Virus record (IMG/VR): IMGVR_UViG_3300032136_000002
Location: 1-64,000 of that record
Length of the DNA stretch: 64,000 nt
From: a virus
Direction: 5' to 3' (one strand)
Shown: positions 155 through 57,198 of the stretch, piece by piece
Layout of the letters: each line of letters opens with the position of its first letter
Numbering within the stretch: the first letter of the stretch is position 1
The notes under the pieces: model-generated
Seen by the model: the letters and a program-made list of their open reading frames with translations, nothing else
The model's database searches: none
What the model was told of the DNA's origin: nothing
Translations under genes and position numbers: made by a program

Positions 155-423
155 CTAATTTTGCGCGCTGGAGACCCCCGGCTTTAGCCGGGGGAGGAAA
201 GCGCGCCCTCCTTTTGGGTTGTAAAGCGCTTCGCTCGTGATAGAACGCTGCTGGGGGCCGGGCGGGCCCCAGCAGCACGCGGAGAGACGGTAAGACATCG
301 GCGAGGCTTCCCCTCGACGCTGCGCGTCGAGGGGAAACGTGAACCATCTTGATAGGTTGTGACTAATAACCAAAGTTGCTTCCTTTCAAGAATCCCTCGC
401 CTTTAGGCGAGGGAGGACGTCAA
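155..423 (+). mobile_element. non-autonomous IS200/IS605-family element (269 bp, PATE/MITE-like) carrying a TnpB omegaRNA-like scaffold, copy 1
   Basis: Left end GAGA+hairpin CCCCCGGCTTTAGCCGGGGG; right end GAAT+hairpin CCCTCGCCTTTAGGCGAGGG...TCAA; no TSD; preceded by CCAT; near-identical to 13127-13395 and 56930-57198. Confidence 0.9.
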
Positions 424-4122: not shown

Positions 4123-4290
4123 AGGCAGCAGACTGGACTTAGTTGACATCCTCCCCGGCATAAACGCCGGGGATTCCTAAGCGGCCTTTGCCGCTCGGGA
4201 GCGTCTCTTGCGAGCTGCTCGCGGTTTCTGCTTCGCTGAGGGCCCCAATGAGCCCTCTCCACAGACTGACAGGGTCTGCCCGACCCTCAA
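4123..4290 (-). ncRNA. TnpB omegaRNA (reRNA) with right end at 4143 and guide CTAAGTCCAGTCTGCTGCCT
   Basis: Scaffold overlaps the tnpB 3' end (GGGTCGGGCAGACCC...GTGGAGAG...GAAGCAGAAACC) and ends GAAT-CCCCGGCGTTTATGCCGGGG-AGGATGTCAA. Confidence 0.75.
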
Positions 4291-5406
4291 GATATTCTTA
4301 GCAGCGTTGATGTCCGCATCATCCTCGTGGCCGCAGGCCACGCAGACAAAACGTGCTTGTGTACGACGACTCTCAGAGCTGACGTGCGCGCATCGTGCGC
4401 ACGTCTGACTGGTGTACTTCGGCGGTACAGCTACAACCTTCCCACCTCGCCATTGCCCCTTGTAGGTGAGCTGGCGGCGAAATTCAAACCACCCCTGGTC
4501 GAGAATAGCTTTGTTCAAGCCTGCTTTGCTGCGGACGTTTTTCCCCGGCTCTTCCGTGGTCCCACGTGCCGATGCGCTCATGTTTTTAACTTTCAAATCC
4601 TCAACATACACCACCGCGTGGCTTTTGCTGATGGCCGTCGAGGTTTTGTGCAGAAAGTCGTTTCGAGCGTCGGCAATGCGGATGTGCAGCCGAGAAACGA
4701 CTGCTTTCTGTTTTTTCCAGTTGCTGGAAAATCTCTTCTTCCGTGACAGGGCACGTTGCGCGGTGCCCATTTGCTTCTCCAAACGTCGGAAGCTATCTAT
4801 GGGCTGAACAAGCTCGCCGGTCGACAGGGCGGCGAACTTCGCCACCCCCATGTCGATGCCGACCTCGGACGAACTTGGATGAATGGAGTCTGCTACCTCT
4901 CGCTCGGTCTGCACCGAGATGAACCAGTGGGCACCACGGCGCTTGACGGTAACGTTTTTGATGGTTCCTTCGATTTCTCGGCTCTTACGGAACCGTACCC
5001 AGCCAAGCGCTGGCAGCTTGATTCGACGACCATTGACCCCGATGCTGTCGTTCGCCTGCGAAAAACGGAAGCTATCGAACGACCGGCCCTTCTTCTTGAA
5101 GCGAGGAAAACCTTTTCTTTTCAAGAAGAAGTCGCTGAAGGCCTTGCCCAAATCCTTAAGAACCTGTTGCTGTGGCCTACTGTGAACCTCGGAGAGAAAC
5201 GAAAGCTCTGGGTCGTTTCGGGCTACAGTGAGTTCGCGACAAAGCTCTGCATAGTTCAGTGTTTTTGAGTGCTTACTTAGACGATGCTTCTGCAGGGCAA
5301 GAGCTGAATTCCAAATAAAGCGTATAGCTCCCGCCGTGCGCTCCAAAATCACACGCTGCCCTTCGGTAGGCTCGATTCTGAACTTGTAGCCTTGACGCCG
5401 CAGCAT
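4177..5406 (-). CDS. tnpB: IS200/IS605-family RNA-guided endonuclease TnpB (409 aa)
   Basis: N-terminal GYKFRIEPT HTH_OrfB; RuvC residues GIDMG, VEDL and DADINAA intact; C4 Zn finger CARC/CVAC; no tnpA in the window. Confidence 0.95.
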   Translation of the reverse strand: MLRRQGYKFRIEPTEGQRVILERTAGAIRFIWNSALALQKHRLSKHSKTLNYAELCRELTVARNDPELSFLSEVHSRPQQQVLKDLGKAFSDFFLKRKGFPRFKKKGRSFDSFRFSQANDSIGVNGRRIKLPALGWVRFRKSREIEGTIKNVTVKRRGAHWFISVQTEREVADSIHPSSSEVGIDMGVAKFAALSTGELVQPIDSFRRLEKQMGTAQRALSRKKRFSSNWKKQKAVVSRLHIRIADARNDFLHKTSTAISKSHAVVYVEDLKVKNMSASARGTTEEPGKNVRSKAGLNKAILDQGWFEFRRQLTYKGQWRGGKVVAVPPKYTSQTCARCAHVSSESRRTQARFVCVACGHEDDADINAAKNILRVGQTLSVCGEGSLGPSAKQKPRAARKRRSRAAKAA

Positions 5407-5876
5407 CGCGCTCGTGTAGCACCGGTGTGCGCTCCCAACAAGCAGAAAAGCTACTTCACCTAACTCCCGCTGAACCCTAGGGGCGCACCTACCCCCGTGT
5501 AAACCACTGAGACCACTCAAAGCGCAGGATCTTGTTTCAGCCCCCGCGTAACTTTGATACAACGCCCGTTCACGTAATCCGTTGGTGAAACAAGATGAAG
5601 CGCAGACAACACAGGGGAGGGAGCAGCCAACACGCTTAAAAGACGAAAGCCATCAGCCCGGCAGAACTGATGGCTCCTAAGTCTGTCTATTGACCTAACC
5701 AGTCAAGGCGAGTCCTACCGCGAGTCGTCCCGGAGGTCAATAGGTAAAGAGTGCAGAGCTGCCTCTTATTGAGGCACTATGTATACATCTCCGCACATTC
5801 AATCGTCTTTTTATTGCGTCACCTGCCGAGTGAACGTTGTCGCTCCCCCTGTTCTGACTGCGCAGGGAGCAACGAA

Positions 5877-13126: not shown

Positions 13127-13395
13127 CTAATTTTGCGCGCTGGAGACCCCCGGCTTTAGCCGGGGGAGGAAAGCGCGCCCTCCTTTTGGGTTGCAAAGCG
13201 CTTCGCTCGTGATAGAACGCTGCTGGGGGCCGGGCGGGCCCCAGCAGCACGCGGAGAGACGGTAAGACATCGGCGAGGCTTCCCCTCGACGCTGCGCGTC
13301 TCGGTGAAACGTGAACCATCTTGATAGGTTGTGACTAATAACCAAAGTTGCTTCCTTTCAAGAATCCCTCGCCTTTAGGCGAGGGAGGACGTCAA
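13127..13395 (+). mobile_element. 269-bp non-autonomous IS200/IS605 omegaRNA element, copy 2
   Basis: Near-identical to 155-423; preceded by TCAT; ends TCAA. Confidence 0.9.
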
Positions 13396-17976: not shown

Positions 17977-19095
17977 TCAGTAGCTGTCCACCGACGGGAA
18001 GGTCAGTCCATCGTCGGCCCGGTGGTTCGGGGCGCCGAGGTCCTTGACCTCCTTCGGGCTCACGTCAGCCAGGATACCGTCGGCATCGTTGGACGTGGCG
18101 TCACCGGAGTAGAGCTCCAGCTTGCGCACGGCCGCGATGTTGGCGATGACCATGGCGATGTCTTCCCAGGCCTGGAACGTAATCAAGTTCGCGATCTTGT
18201 CGATGTAGAACTGGACGTTGTTCAGGACGAAGAAGCAGCCCAAGTAGTCCGGGTCCGTGAAGACGTACACGTTGCCGGGTCGGAGGATGTCGGTCTTGAC
18301 CGTCCGGACGAAGCTGAAGCCCATGACCATCTGGTACTTGTAGCCGTCGACCGTGGTCTCGCTCTGGACCTTGTCGCCCATGTCCTCGACCGTCCACTGG
18401 TGGAGGTCCAGGAACTCGCCCTCGGTGAAGAGGAACTTGCGCGGGCGCAGCCGGTTGTTGGCCAAGAGCTTGGCCAAGTTGGTCAGGTCCGGCTTCTGGA
18501 GCGGATAGACCGTGGCGTCGTCAGTGGCGGCCTGACGAGCGATGGAGCCCTTGCGCACAGAGGCCTCAACCGTGGTGCCGATGGCCGACGCGTTGAGCGT
18601 GGTCACGGAGCCACCGTTGGCCTCTTGCTGCACGGCTTGAACTGCCGCCTCGATGTGGATGGTCCACTCGCGGTCTTCAATCTCCTGGATGTCTTTGAGG
18701 CTGTTGTCCTCAATCCACTTGGTGATGGAGACGTCGTAGGCGTACAGCTCCTGGGTGAACTTCTCGAACTTCTCACTCGAGATGGTGTAGAACGGCACCT
18801 CGATGCGAGGAGCGCGGATGATGCGGGCGTCGGGCTGACCACGGAAGGTCAACGGCATGGCCCGGCTCTCGGGCTCGAGCGTGATGAGTTTCGTCACGGT
18901 GTCGTAGTTGACCGAGGGACGGACGTCCGCCTTGGTCACGGGCTCGGGCGGAACGAAGTTCCGAGCGTAGGACACCTCGCGCAGCCGGTCCCGGATCATT
19001 TTGCCGGTCAGCTGAGCGATCTTGTTTTTGCCCTCCGGCGTATCGAGCCGGGAGGCGAACAGGTCATTGATCAAGCTATAGTCTGTGCCTGACAT
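17977..19095 (-). CDS. major capsid protein (HK97 fold)
   Basis: 372 aa; follows protease, scaffold and decoration genes; IRDRLRE..., DIQEIEDRE spine helix; very high GC3; followed by a terminator. Confidence 0.8.
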   Translation of the reverse strand: MSGTDYSLINDLFASRLDTPEGKNKIAQLTGKMIRDRLREVSYARNFVPPEPVTKADVRPSVNYDTVTKLITLEPESRAMPLTFRGQPDARIIRAPRIEVPFYTISSEKFEKFTQELYAYDVSITKWIEDNSLKDIQEIEDREWTIHIEAAVQAVQQEANGGSVTTLNASAIGTTVEASVRKGSIARQAATDDATVYPLQKPDLTNLAKLLANNRLRPRKFLFTEGEFLDLHQWTVEDMGDKVQSETTVDGYKYQMVMGFSFVRTVKTDILRPGNVYVFTDPDYLGCFFVLNNVQFYIDKIANLITFQAWEDIAMVIANIAAVRKLELYSGDATSNDADGILADVSPKEVKDLGAPNHRADDGLTFPSVDSY

Positions 19096-20014: not shown

Positions 20015-21244
20015 TCACATCATTGGGTTGCCGCCAGCCGGCGAGGGCTCGACGGTGGACGGGACATTGGAGGCTCCAGGAACGCTACCGTTTTGGGCCT
20101 CTTTCTCAGACGCACCTGACTTGGAATCGAGGCGAGACGCGACTCTGCAGAACTTGCACTCCCCTTTCTCAAGGCCTTCCTGTTCACAGGTACAGCCCTC
20201 GGAGGCAATCTTGCTGATCAGTGCCCGAGCTGCGGCGATTTTGAGCTTCCGCTCACTCGCGATCTTCGCCCCGGCTTGGTCAACAACTTGGGCTCCCAAA
20301 GTCTGGTCCAATGCCTTATCGGTAGAGCGGGTCAAGGCCTTCTCACTGAGCAGAGCCGCGAGGTCCTGCTTTGAAAGAGCCTTGGCCTTCCGTTTGGTCA
20401 GATTCAGAGCAGCCTCGTTGGAGGCGAGCATGGCCCGCTGTCCTTCAGCTCCCGCGGCGAGCGGGGCGTTGAGTGGACGGTCCTCTGGCAAGACCGCACT
20501 CTTCGAGGCACGGATGTTGGTCTTGGCGTTGTCCTCCGCATACTTCTGATGCATGGCGGCGACGTACTCTTGGAGCGACCCCGTTTTGGCTTTCGCCCCA
20601 CGCTCTTTGCCCACGTACTTGTGGATGTCCCCGAAAGACATGGAACTGGGGTCTTTCCCTGTCGCCTTTTGGTAACGAGAGAAAGCCCCCTTGAGCTCCG
20701 GACTCTTGGGGTTCTGCGCGAGGACATCAGCTAAGGCCGCTTGTTTGGCCTGAGCAGCCTCATTGGTCGCCATGGCGGCAGGAGCATTCTCCTGCAGCAC
20801 CTTCTCTTGAGCAGGGTGGGTCGGGATCTTGGCCCTGGCCTCACCAAAGTTGGACGGCGCCGACTCCGCCTGCTGCTTCACATTGGTGGGCATCTGAGTG
20901 GCGTTCTCAGGGGCCCCTTCCATGGCCGTGACTATCCGGCCGACCGAAGACTGGTCGCCCTGGAGCAGGACGCGGACCACCTCTTCGATGGCACTGGCCA
21001 TCTTCTCCACACGGTCCCGGTCGGTGTCCTCCGACTCAGGGTTGTCCTGACCGCCGCCTTGGGCCTTTTCTTCCTTCTCGGCCTCGCGCTCGGCCTCATC
21101 TTTCGACTTGCGAGAGGGGGCTTTGCTTTCGCCTTGAGCTTCTGCCGATTCATCCATCTCATCGGCTGCTTGGGCGATCTTGCTCAGCGCCTGCCCCTCT
21201 GCGCCAGCCAAGACCCCATCGATCATCTGTTGGAGCGTGAGCAT
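20015..21244 (-). CDS. scaffold-like K-x-A motif protein (409 aa); first six codons and RBS appear to be a recoded replacement
   Basis: About 8 KxA motifs; a second copy of its 5' end lies at 21562-21579. Confidence 0.7.
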   Translation of the reverse strand: MLTLQQMIDGVLAGAEGQALSKIAQAADEMDESAEAQGESKAPSRKSKDEAEREAEKEEKAQGGGQDNPESEDTDRDRVEKMASAIEEVVRVLLQGDQSSVGRIVTAMEGAPENATQMPTNVKQQAESAPSNFGEARAKIPTHPAQEKVLQENAPAAMATNEAAQAKQAALADVLAQNPKSPELKGAFSRYQKATGKDPSSMSFGDIHKYVGKERGAKAKTGSLQEYVAAMHQKYAEDNAKTNIRASKSAVLPEDRPLNAPLAAGAEGQRAMLASNEAALNLTKRKAKALSKQDLAALLSEKALTRSTDKALDQTLGAQVVDQAGAKIASERKLKIAAARALISKIASEGCTCEQEGLEKGECKFCRVASRLDSKSGASEKEAQNGSVPGASNVPSTVEPSPAGGNPMM

Positions 21245-21319
21245 GCGTGTATCCTTTCAGAAACACAGAGGAAACATGGGTGCTGACGCTTCCCGTGCTT
21301 CCGCCAAGTTACTTTCCGT

Positions 21320-21581
21320 TGCGAAGCTCCCAGCTTTTGCTACAAAGCCGCTGGGGGCCGGGCGGGCCCTTTCAGTACGTGGAGAGACGGTAAGACAGCA
21401 CCGGGGCTCTCCCTCGGGGTTGCTCGTTTCGTTGAAGCGTGAACCATCTTGGAAAGAGCGGGCGATAACCAAGCCCACTCCACCCAAGAAGCCGCTTTTT
21501 TGATGGAAGCGGTGGACGCCAAGTGCGCCCCCGCCACCAACCAGAAGGCGGTGGACGTCAACTGCTGTAGCGTGAGCATGC
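21320..21581 (+). ncRNA. stand-alone TnpB omegaRNA scaffold with duplicated 3' end and two guides
   Basis: Scaffold GCTGGGGGCCGGGCGGGCCC...GGAGAGACGGTAAGACA...GAAGCGTGAACCATCTT shared with the 269-bp elements; repeat GCGGTGGACGYCAA at 21509-21522 and 21548-21561; promoter-like TTGCGA-N16-TACAAA. Confidence 0.75.
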
Positions 21582-21591
21582 ATTTCCATTC

Positions 21592-21879
21592 TCACACCCG
21601 CACGGGTGGCGGGGGCACCATGTGGGCCCCCGCCACCACCGAGTTGTCCGGTTGCACGACTTCTGTGTTTGGAACGGTGTAGTTGGTCTTCTGCAGGTTG
21701 GTCTTGGAGACCACCTTCCCAACAAGCTGCTTAGACGTAGTGGGTTTGGACGGATTGCTTTGCATCCGTTTCCCATCCCCTCCAGGGTTGGGAGGGCTGA
21801 TGATTGAGGGGTGTGAAGTGTACGCTGCAATCTTCAGCAGCTCCTCAACCATCGCCCGATAAAAGACCGGCGTGATCAC
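21592..21879 (-). CDS. small K-x-A motif internal protein
   Basis: N-terminal FYRAMVEELLKIAA. Confidence 0.7.
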   Translation of the reverse strand: MITPVFYRAMVEELLKIAAYTSHPSIISPPNPGGDGKRMQSNPSKPTTSKQLVGKVVSKTNLQKTNYTVPNTEVVQPDNSVVAGAHMVPPPPVRV

Positions 21880-31592: not shown

Positions 31593-32455
31593 GACTCCTT
31601 CGCTTCGAGTTGGACCTTTTCGTCTGGGGCAGAGATGGTACCACCAAGCGAATCCACTGTGGTGGCCTGGTGACTCCGTGTCTGTAGCTGGAATGCACGG
31701 AATGAATCCAGCACGTCAGTCATCGCCGTAGCTGACGCCGTCGCCTCCTCCTGCGCCATCTTGGCCGACAAGACGTAGTTGCGGAAAGCTGTGGAATGGT
31801 CTTTGCTCGCCGGCTCGTGCTCGAGCTCGAGGGCCTTGAAGTACGCGATGTCTCTCAAATGGGTGAAGAGCTTGTTCGCGTCAATGTGCCGTGCGGTCCC
31901 CACCCCCGTTTTCCAGAGGAGCAAGTGGACACCACTGGGCCCCTGGGCTTTGACCGCCAGCTGCAGCCAGTCCTGGTGCGCCACCCGGCGCCGGCGGATG
32001 AACTCGCCCCACTCTTTGCCGTTGAGAAGCGAGCTGTTCCAGAAGTAGTGCTGAAAAAGTTGGTAGGCCTCTAAGCTGACTCCGTGATTCACCTCACGGT
32101 TGATCCGAGTCACCGCCTGCTCGGGGGTGAGCGGAGACAAGATGAAAGTCTCAACCAAAGCTCGCCGCCTGGGCTCGCCGAGCAGCTCAATCGCCTCCTT
32201 CATCGACGGCGTGCGCACCCACGCATCGTAGATGCCCTGCCGGCGGACGTAGACCACGCTTGGCCGATGGGCGAGGTTGTTTCCCCGGAACGGGACGGGC
32301 ATGTCTGCCATGACCTGCCCGCGAACAGTGGTGAGGTAGGAGTTCTCAACCGGCCCGAGGTTGGCCATCTCGCACATGGCTTTGACCTCGTCAAAGGTGT
32401 GCTCGCACCGGGAGAGCAGGAACTTGATCCAGTAAAGAGACGGGTGTTCAGACAT
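31589..32455 (-). CDS. hypothetical protein (possible terminase small subunit or packaging factor)
   Basis: Helical; upstream of the terminase; TAATG coupling. Confidence 0.5.
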   Translation of the reverse strand: MSEHPSLYWIKFLLSRCEHTFDEVKAMCEMANLGPVENSYLTTVRGQVMADMPVPFRGNNLAHRPSVVYVRRQGIYDAWVRTPSMKEAIELLGEPRRRALVETFILSPLTPEQAVTRINREVNHGVSLEAYQLFQHYFWNSSLLNGKEWGEFIRRRRVAHQDWLQLAVKAQGPSGVHLLLWKTGVGTARHIDANKLFTHLRDIAYFKALELEHEPASKDHSTAFRNYVLSAKMAQEEATASATAMTDVLDSFRAFQLQTRSHQATTVDSLGGTISAPDEKVQLEAKES

Positions 32456-56929: not shown

Positions 56930-57198
56930 TTGACGTCCTCCCTCGCCTAAAGGCGAGGGATTCTTGAAAGGAAGCAACTTTGGTTATTAGTCACAACCTA
57001 TCAAGATGGTTCACGTTTCACCGAGACGCGCAGCGTCGAGGGGAAGCCTCGCCGATGTCTTACCGTCTCTCCGCGTGCTGCTGGGGCCCGCCCGGCCCCC
57101 AGCAGCGTTCTATCACGAGCGAAGCGCTTTACAACCCAAAAGGAAGGCGCGCTTTCCTCCCCCGGCTAAAGCCGGGGGTCTCCAGCGCGCAAAATTAG
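56930..57198 (-). mobile_element. 269-bp non-autonomous IS200/IS605 omegaRNA element, copy 3 (inverted)
   Basis: Reverse complement of copies 1 and 2; lies between the helicase stop and the primase ATG. Confidence 0.9.

Follow-up and report, generated by a model that had tools for sequence, protein, structure and literature searches.

The head-morphogenesis block of the phage genome represented by IMG/VR record IMGVR_UViG_3300032136_000002 includes a gene whose first six codons are encountered twice, once on each side of an insert, and the question that this locus raises is how an essential phage gene came to be furnished with a second start. The stretch of DNA analysed, referred to here as the window, is the first 64 kb (64,000 nt) of a linear record of 102,280 nt with a CheckV completeness of 56%. 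The locus lies on the - strand, in a block that also contains the major head protein gene (17977-19095; phrog_2522, E = 3e-12) and a protease-like ORF. Located between these two, the 409-aa gene probably encodes the head scaffolding protein, and is called the scaffold gene below; its product has no match among Pfam or PHROG families. Homologues of the protein (P0002-P0006) have the first 29 residues in common, and T3, L4, Q5, Q6 and M7 are invariant across eight sequences. Some of the homologues (among P0004-P0006) have a central Gly/Ala-rich insertion of 70-100 residues that is absent in the present phage. Just upstream of the scaffold gene is orf95, the tail of which is intact (...AGAHMVPPPPVRV); this PPPPVR tail is kept in all relatives.

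Reading of the interval between the two genes on the - strand bore out the arrangement described in the first-pass annotation. The orf95 stop codon (TGA, 21594-21592) is followed after 12 nt by ATG CTC ACG CTA CAG CAG (21579-21562), with TTGA following at once. At 21244 the 409-aa ORF opens with ATG CTC ACG CTC CAA CAG ATG, and it has the separate ribosome-binding site that had been claimed for it (Table 1). The upstream copy, which no longer leads into the gene, is termed the orphan, and the other the working or gene-proximal copy. Together they form a 20-nt direct duplication (21227-21246 and 21562-21581) comprising codons 1-6 of the scaffold gene plus 2 nt. The copies are identical at 18/20 positions, and both differences (CTA/CTC and CAG/CAA) are synonymous and fall at third-codon positions. 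A repeat search reported a somewhat longer direct repeat of 24 nt (21223-21246 versus 21558-21581; 88% identity, 335 nt apart); since this opens with TCAT in one copy and TCAA in the other, the true duplication is one of 20 nt with two mismatches. No additional sites with three or fewer mismatches to the 20-mer were found in the whole window, none (0) occurred in 100 dinucleotide shuffles, and the whole 102-kb record holds no third copy.

Table 1. Coordinates, in the window, of the duplicated start, the element copies and the associated genes
Feature	Position	Strand	Basis or remarks
Scaffold gene (409 aa, acidic, head module)	20015-21244	-	ORF list; intact, native N-terminus MLTLQQM
TCAT target motif (TAM) at the split point	21223-21226	+	antisense of codons 7-8 (ATG A..)
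Gene-proximal 20-mer	21227-21246	+	antisense of working codons 1-6 plus GC; mismatches to orphan at 4 and 7 from TAM
New Shine-Dalgarno, AAGGA	21252-21256	-	7 nt before working ATG; inside private segment X
Private spacer X (23-31 nt)	21247-21269, up to 21277	+	no counterpart in canonical copies; carries new Shine-Dalgarno
Body of element copy 3	21270-21522	+	nhmmer E = 1e-67; core 78-81% identical to canonical copies
First right end, RE1	21509-21522	+	...GACGCCAA
Putative 'guide 1' segment, 25 nt, between the two right-end motifs	21523-21547	+	19/22 identical to 21622-21643
Second right-end motif, RE2, 14 nt	21548-21561	+	...GACGTCAA; flush with orphan start
Orphan 20-mer	21562-21581	+	antisense of ancestral codons 1-6 plus GC; at the guide position of an omegaRNA
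orf95 (95 aa, small conserved head-module gene), just upstream of the scaffold gene	21592-21879	-	homologues P0011-P0020
CCAT + 22-nt self-target resembling guide 1, within orf95 tail	21618-21643	+	sequence match
Canonical element copy 1, 269 nt	155-423	+	nhmmer; directly upstream (antisense) of a gene's ATG
Canonical element copy 2	13127-13395	+	nhmmer
Canonical element copy 4	56930-57198	-	nhmmer
tnpB, the only one of the record	4177-5406; 4143-5406 with its omegaRNA-like 3' end	-	Pfam OrfB_IS605, Cas12f1-like_TNB, HTH_OrfB

Relatives of the locus indicate which of the two starts is the older. Profile scans for the scaffold locus returned six viral and four metagenome loci with 30-43% identity, two of the metagenome loci containing the 5' end, while a single-protein scan of viral contigs and tblastn of the locus against GenBank phages each returned no relative; the close protein relatives (P0002-P0006 and P0012-P0016) show 52-75% identity. 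Comparison of the gene start at the DNA level involved the eight related loci that contain the 5' end (30-43% identity). At 8/8 of these a single start is located 8-16 nt after the stop codon of the orf95 homologue, with no second copy of MLTLQQ and no element, and ACG CTA CAG CAG ATG, which corresponds to the codons of the orphan copy, is read in several of them, including L005 and L013. A single start at this distance from the orf95 stop in the relatives means that the orphan copy occupies the ancestral position and has ancestral-type codons. The sequence that would continue it, ATG ATC, is now 335 nt away, with TCAT on the element's strand. The GTCAA end of the element is flush with the sequence that formerly came after TCAT, and the right junction is thus that expected of an IS200/IS605 insertion. 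The first-pass annotation had proposed insertion at TCAT between codons 6 and 7; the start position in the relatives, the TCAT at the split point and the flush GTCAA end all agree with this, and it is likely that the element split the scaffold gene at this point.

The 315 nt between the two 20-mers proved to be a divergent member, copy 3, of a repeat family with four copies in the window, its sense strand being +. The three remaining copies, termed canonical, are near-identical and 269 nt in length. They immediately follow CCAT, TCAT and TCAT, the YCAT being the antisense of the neighbouring gene's ATG, such that each sits exactly between YCAT and the preceding gene. [quoted passage not shown] Canonical elements fold far better than shuffles (z = -7.0 for copy 1). 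The right-end motif GGWGGACGYCAA, which is TCAA-type and located about 10 nt after the hairpin, has five hits against 0.08 expected, two of them in copy 3. At copy 2 the TTGA end of the element re-forms the stop codon of the upstream gene, and no obvious Shine-Dalgarno remains before the downstream ATG after any of the three canonical insertions. A weak nhmmer match at 31979-32042, which falls within a coding ORF, was set aside.

Insertion at YCAT, the GTCAA end, the LE and RE hairpins and a core resembling a tnpB 3' end are hallmarks of gene-less IS200/IS605-type elements, and the family appears to be of this kind. Since gene-less IS200/IS605 derivatives that encode an omegaRNA are already known (PMC10055086), the family itself is ordinary. 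Searches for relatives of the element elsewhere gave nothing of substance. An exact search with a conserved 17-mer gave one match in viral contigs, attributable to chance, and 20 in genome contigs, all of which were chance matches or fell in a Chloroflexi protein-coding gene. A degenerate 32-nt pattern had no match in viral contigs, blastn of the element against GenBank phages gave no match, and the same was true of an antisense 79-aa ORF employed as a protein query for element relatives.

The family is linked by sequence to the resident tnpB. The encoded protein matches ISDra2 TnpB (8bf8) with E = 1e-55, contains RuvC motifs and, judged from its sequence, looks catalytically intact. The 3' end of the gene is omegaRNA-like, with a right end (...GATGTCAA) at about 4143, and the core and right end of the element are collinear with it (nhmmer E = 0.015). 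Same-sense matches to the Rfam family HgcC (RF00062), sub-threshold against a cut-off of 50 bits, were returned for both the tnpB 3' end (4130-4257, - strand; 28.8 bits) and the right third of a canonical element (353-436, + strand; 24.4 bits). At gathering thresholds Rfam returned nothing over the whole window, and a local E-value search around copy 3 gave chance matches only. Over 4177-5562 (- strand) there is no recognisable left end upstream of tnpB, and the 102-kb record, which is 56% complete, has no gene for TnpA (Y1 transposase, PF01797); a TnpA may act in trans. For RNA from the + strand of copy 3, no sigma-70-like promoter was found, and one weak terminator-like site only. The closest TnpB (69% identity) is from a 177-kb phage contig, L037/G001, which has no copy of the element and only a remote homologue of the scaffold protein.

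Alignment of copy 3 to the canonical copies revealed that every pair of its LE hairpin is deleted or broken, with the RE hairpin kept, and nhmmer homology to the family begins at 21272. Given the loss of the LE hairpin, copy 3 is a relic rather than a mobile member of the family. Its internal stems have been retained, and in 11 of the pairs both partners have changed, a signal that derives from comparison of two lineages and that ssDNA hairpins could equally give; the folding z is -2.7. Copy 3 looks like an old, immobile relic with an RNA-like core that may still be constrained. RE1 and RE2 are 39 nt apart, giving a repeat-spacer-repeat-spacer layout (21509-21561, + strand), and the stem of the RE2 hairpin is built partly from bases of the 25-nt guide 1 segment. 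An open frame of 112 codons (21257-21595, - strand; GTG start, with ATGs at 21589 and 21583) runs antisense across the entire copy, from the orf95 stop to a TGA located 12 nt upstream of the scaffold ATG, and could either maintain coupled translation across the insert or have arisen by chance, for which the odds are roughly 3% per frame. A different frame, of 79 codons, begins at the orphan ATG (21579) and ends at 21340. Searches of viral contigs, genome contigs and GenBank phages revealed no second scar of this sort and no other member of a copy-3 subfamily.

The left side of the insert departs from the canonical layout: copy 3 has TCAT at the split point, yet a 20-nt duplication flanks the insert. 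Both the gene-proximal 20-mer and spacer X are absent from the three canonical copies and stand in place of the lost LE, indicating that the replacement start is private to this locus and is not cargo of the element; blastn-short of X against the record gave no match elsewhere. The first-pass annotation had regarded the second start as a synonymous duplicate supplied by the cassette. The duplicate does indeed differ only synonymously, but its attribution to the cassette is not supported, given its absence from the canonical copies.

The favoured view is that the scar is a product of recombination or repair, most likely of imprecise recombinational repair between phage genomes. The order of events that we infer, with a part for TnpB, is as follows. 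A non-autonomous IS200/IS605-type PATE with an omegaRNA-like scaffold would have entered the scaffolding gene on the antisense strand, inserting at TCAT between codons 6 and 7, such that the antisense of codons 1-6 came to adjoin its right end. If the DNA was broken at roughly 20 nt from the TAM, which is the cutting distance of TnpB, the gene side would have retained TCAT and the next 20 nt, with the other side of the break being repaired by copying of the element from a filled genome. If the copied strand stalled or ended within the left-end hairpin, and was then joined via filler to the retained 20 nt, the outcome would be that observed, namely a working start consisting of a second copy of the six codons with a new Shine-Dalgarno, and an element immobilised by replacement of its left end.

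Two features argue for the repair model. The duplication measures 20 nt from the TAM, which is within the 15-21 bp cutting distance reported for a TnpB (PMC11043419), and the same element has a second TAM-anchored duplicate, of 22-25 nt, in the form of guide 1 and the orf95 tail. Against it, there is one locus only, the microhomology at the junction amounts to about 3-4 nt and is imperfect, and neither the filler X nor the RE1-guide 1-RE2 layout is cleanly derived; indeed, the layout was not cleanly derived by any model tried. End joining is, moreover, uncommon in phage genomes. Taken as a whole (PATE insertion, a locus-specific patch, imprecise recombinational repair and an orphan in guide position), this is considered the best explanation, with about an even chance of being correct.

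A different route to the same end would be an unequal crossover between two defective genomes. In one, the element would occupy the CCAT of the orf95 tail, with the scaffold gene intact; in the other, it would occupy the TCAT of the scaffold gene, with orf95 intact. Recombination in or near the element would yield a genome in which both genes are intact, and such a recombinant would be strongly favoured by selection. All that lies between the CCAT and the TCAT (about 51-60 nt, comprising the six codons, the spacer and the orf95 tail) would then be duplicated on either side of a single element. Both types of right junction that it calls for are present, RE1 being joined to orf95-tail sequence and RE2 to codons 1-6. 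In addition, X in the gene sense opens with an ATG beside the element body, and an in-frame TGA follows whose distance to the working ATG is exactly 12 nt; the orphan ATG is natively preceded in the same manner, by ATG...TGA plus 12 nt. At the sequence level the resemblance finds no statistical support: X as a diverged orf95 tail plus spacer was rejected, the similarity not being significant (p = 0.14 versus random genomic 32-mers), and the six codons of X are unlike the PPPPVR tail of all relatives. The aligned left end of the family should also start about 8 nt before the ATG of X, and the exchange would need to have occurred outside the element, 25 nt into one flank and, at the opposite side, 14 nt from the right end. 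An unequal crossover is thus viewed as an unlikely source of the scar.

All three canonical copies abut an antisense start codon, and copy 3 might have done likewise, inserting after the CAT of the scaffold ATG, in which case the gene-proximal copy would be the original one and the 18-20-nt repeat akin to a target-site duplication. The 20-mers do flank the 315-nt insert exactly as a target-site duplication would. IS200/IS605 transposition makes no such duplication, however, and there is none at the canonical copies. The repeat starts immediately beyond TCAT, and the orphan directly adjoins RE2, both of which are expected only for insertion at TCAT; furthermore, it is in the orphan, not in the working copy, that the spacing to the orf95 stop is ancestral and the codons match those of the relatives. 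Insertion at the start codon therefore appears quite improbable.

Equally little credence can be given to the idea of a purpose-built cassette that always carries recoded first codons and a ribosome-binding site, and that homes harmlessly into an essential gene. Formally, the block that runs from the recoded six codons, right after the TAM, to GTCAA could be one transposed unit; the recoding is located in the TAM-proximal seed, and integrating elements with a replacement gene end behave in this manner. The three other members of the family have no such segment, though, copy 3 lacks the left-end hairpin required for moving, and no second instance was present in any collection searched, making this too a poor prospect. 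Finally, a chance resemblance or an assembly artefact is very improbable indeed. The record is a viral contig derived from a metagenome, and repeats can lead assembly astray, but the shuffles predict 0 matches, the 20-mers are not identical and each has unique surroundings, orf95 also has a near-identical contig 101,747 nt long, and both flanking genes are intact.

The orphan 20-mer occupies, by position, the place of a guide ('guide 2') in an omegaRNA derived from the right end, and may be one. The gene's own target keeps the TAM and has mismatches to guide 2 at positions 4 and 7; for guide 1 and its self-target in orf95, the mismatches are at positions 4 (a synonymous change), 18 and 20. Mismatches in the first 1-4 nt are reported to abolish unwinding by TnpB (PMC12803034). 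The two TAM-proximal synonymous mismatches would protect the scaffold gene should the resident TnpB use RNA from copy 3, and mismatches in the seed are compatible with self-protection. With only two or three changes, however, selection for escape is not distinguishable from the ordinary divergence of relatives that recombine, and of the two synonymous changes one is towards a preferred codon and the other away from one. It could feasibly be that both TAM-anchored duplicates (20 nt and 22-25 nt) mark places where TnpB cut and the repair that ensued was imprecise, and that copy 3 is an immobilised, two-guide proto-array whose self-targets have escaped by silent seed mutations, serving as a weapon or homing device against related phages with the ancestral sequences; this extension of the model is doubtful.

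Comparison with known systems helps to delimit what is unusual here. PATEs are gene-less derivatives of IS200/IS605 elements that still encode an omegaRNA, which TnpB employs in trans (Meers et al. 2023, PMC10055086). The present family resembles them in its LE and RE hairpins, its insertion at a fixed motif without duplication (at the canonical copies), its GTCAA-type right end, a core with homology to a tnpB 3' end, and the presence of an intact-looking tnpB elsewhere in the genome. Copy 3 is unlike PATEs in that it has no LE hairpin, is associated with a 20-nt target duplication, has two right-end motifs around a 25-nt target-like segment, and is located inside an essential phage gene. As in homing, the putative guide that adjoins the right end equals the stretch located after the TAM in an empty site, and a break would be repaired from the filled copy. 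Normal homing is scarless, whereas the left side of copy 3 keeps a TAM-anchored 20-nt remnant and filler, for which an imprecise, one-sided repair would be needed.

Replacement of a gene end is familiar from prophages and islands in tRNA or tmRNA genes, which are integrating elements that bring a replacement gene end with them. There, as here, the interrupted gene is complete by virtue of a second terminus at one junction, with an orphan fragment at the other. The present case differs in having no integrase or att-type recombination, in that a 5' end with a new ribosome-binding site is concerned rather than a 3' end, and in that the duplicate is not assigned to the mobile unit. Phage genomes that bear homing endonucleases, for their part, achieve self-immunity through silent changes in the target, and the resident target here likewise differs from the presumed cleavable sequence only synonymously. 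Recognition in this instance would be RNA-guided, if the putative guide is one, unlike that of a homing endonuclease, and two changes are no proof of selection.

Insertion and homing of IS200/IS605 elements are generally regarded as scarless. The locus described here presents a real and unusual insertion scar left by an element of a known kind, as opposed to a demonstrated new mechanism, with both the split point and the duplicated start well supported. If it is a one-off recombination scar only, it is still a well-documented case of the repair of an essential gene after a transposon hit. A TAM-anchored 20-nt duplicate that restores the frame in an essential phage gene would show one route by which an element becomes fixed and harmless, and the occurrence in one genome of a putative guide and a mismatched, TAM-flanked self-target would make self-immunity and inter-phage targeting testable with the resident TnpB.
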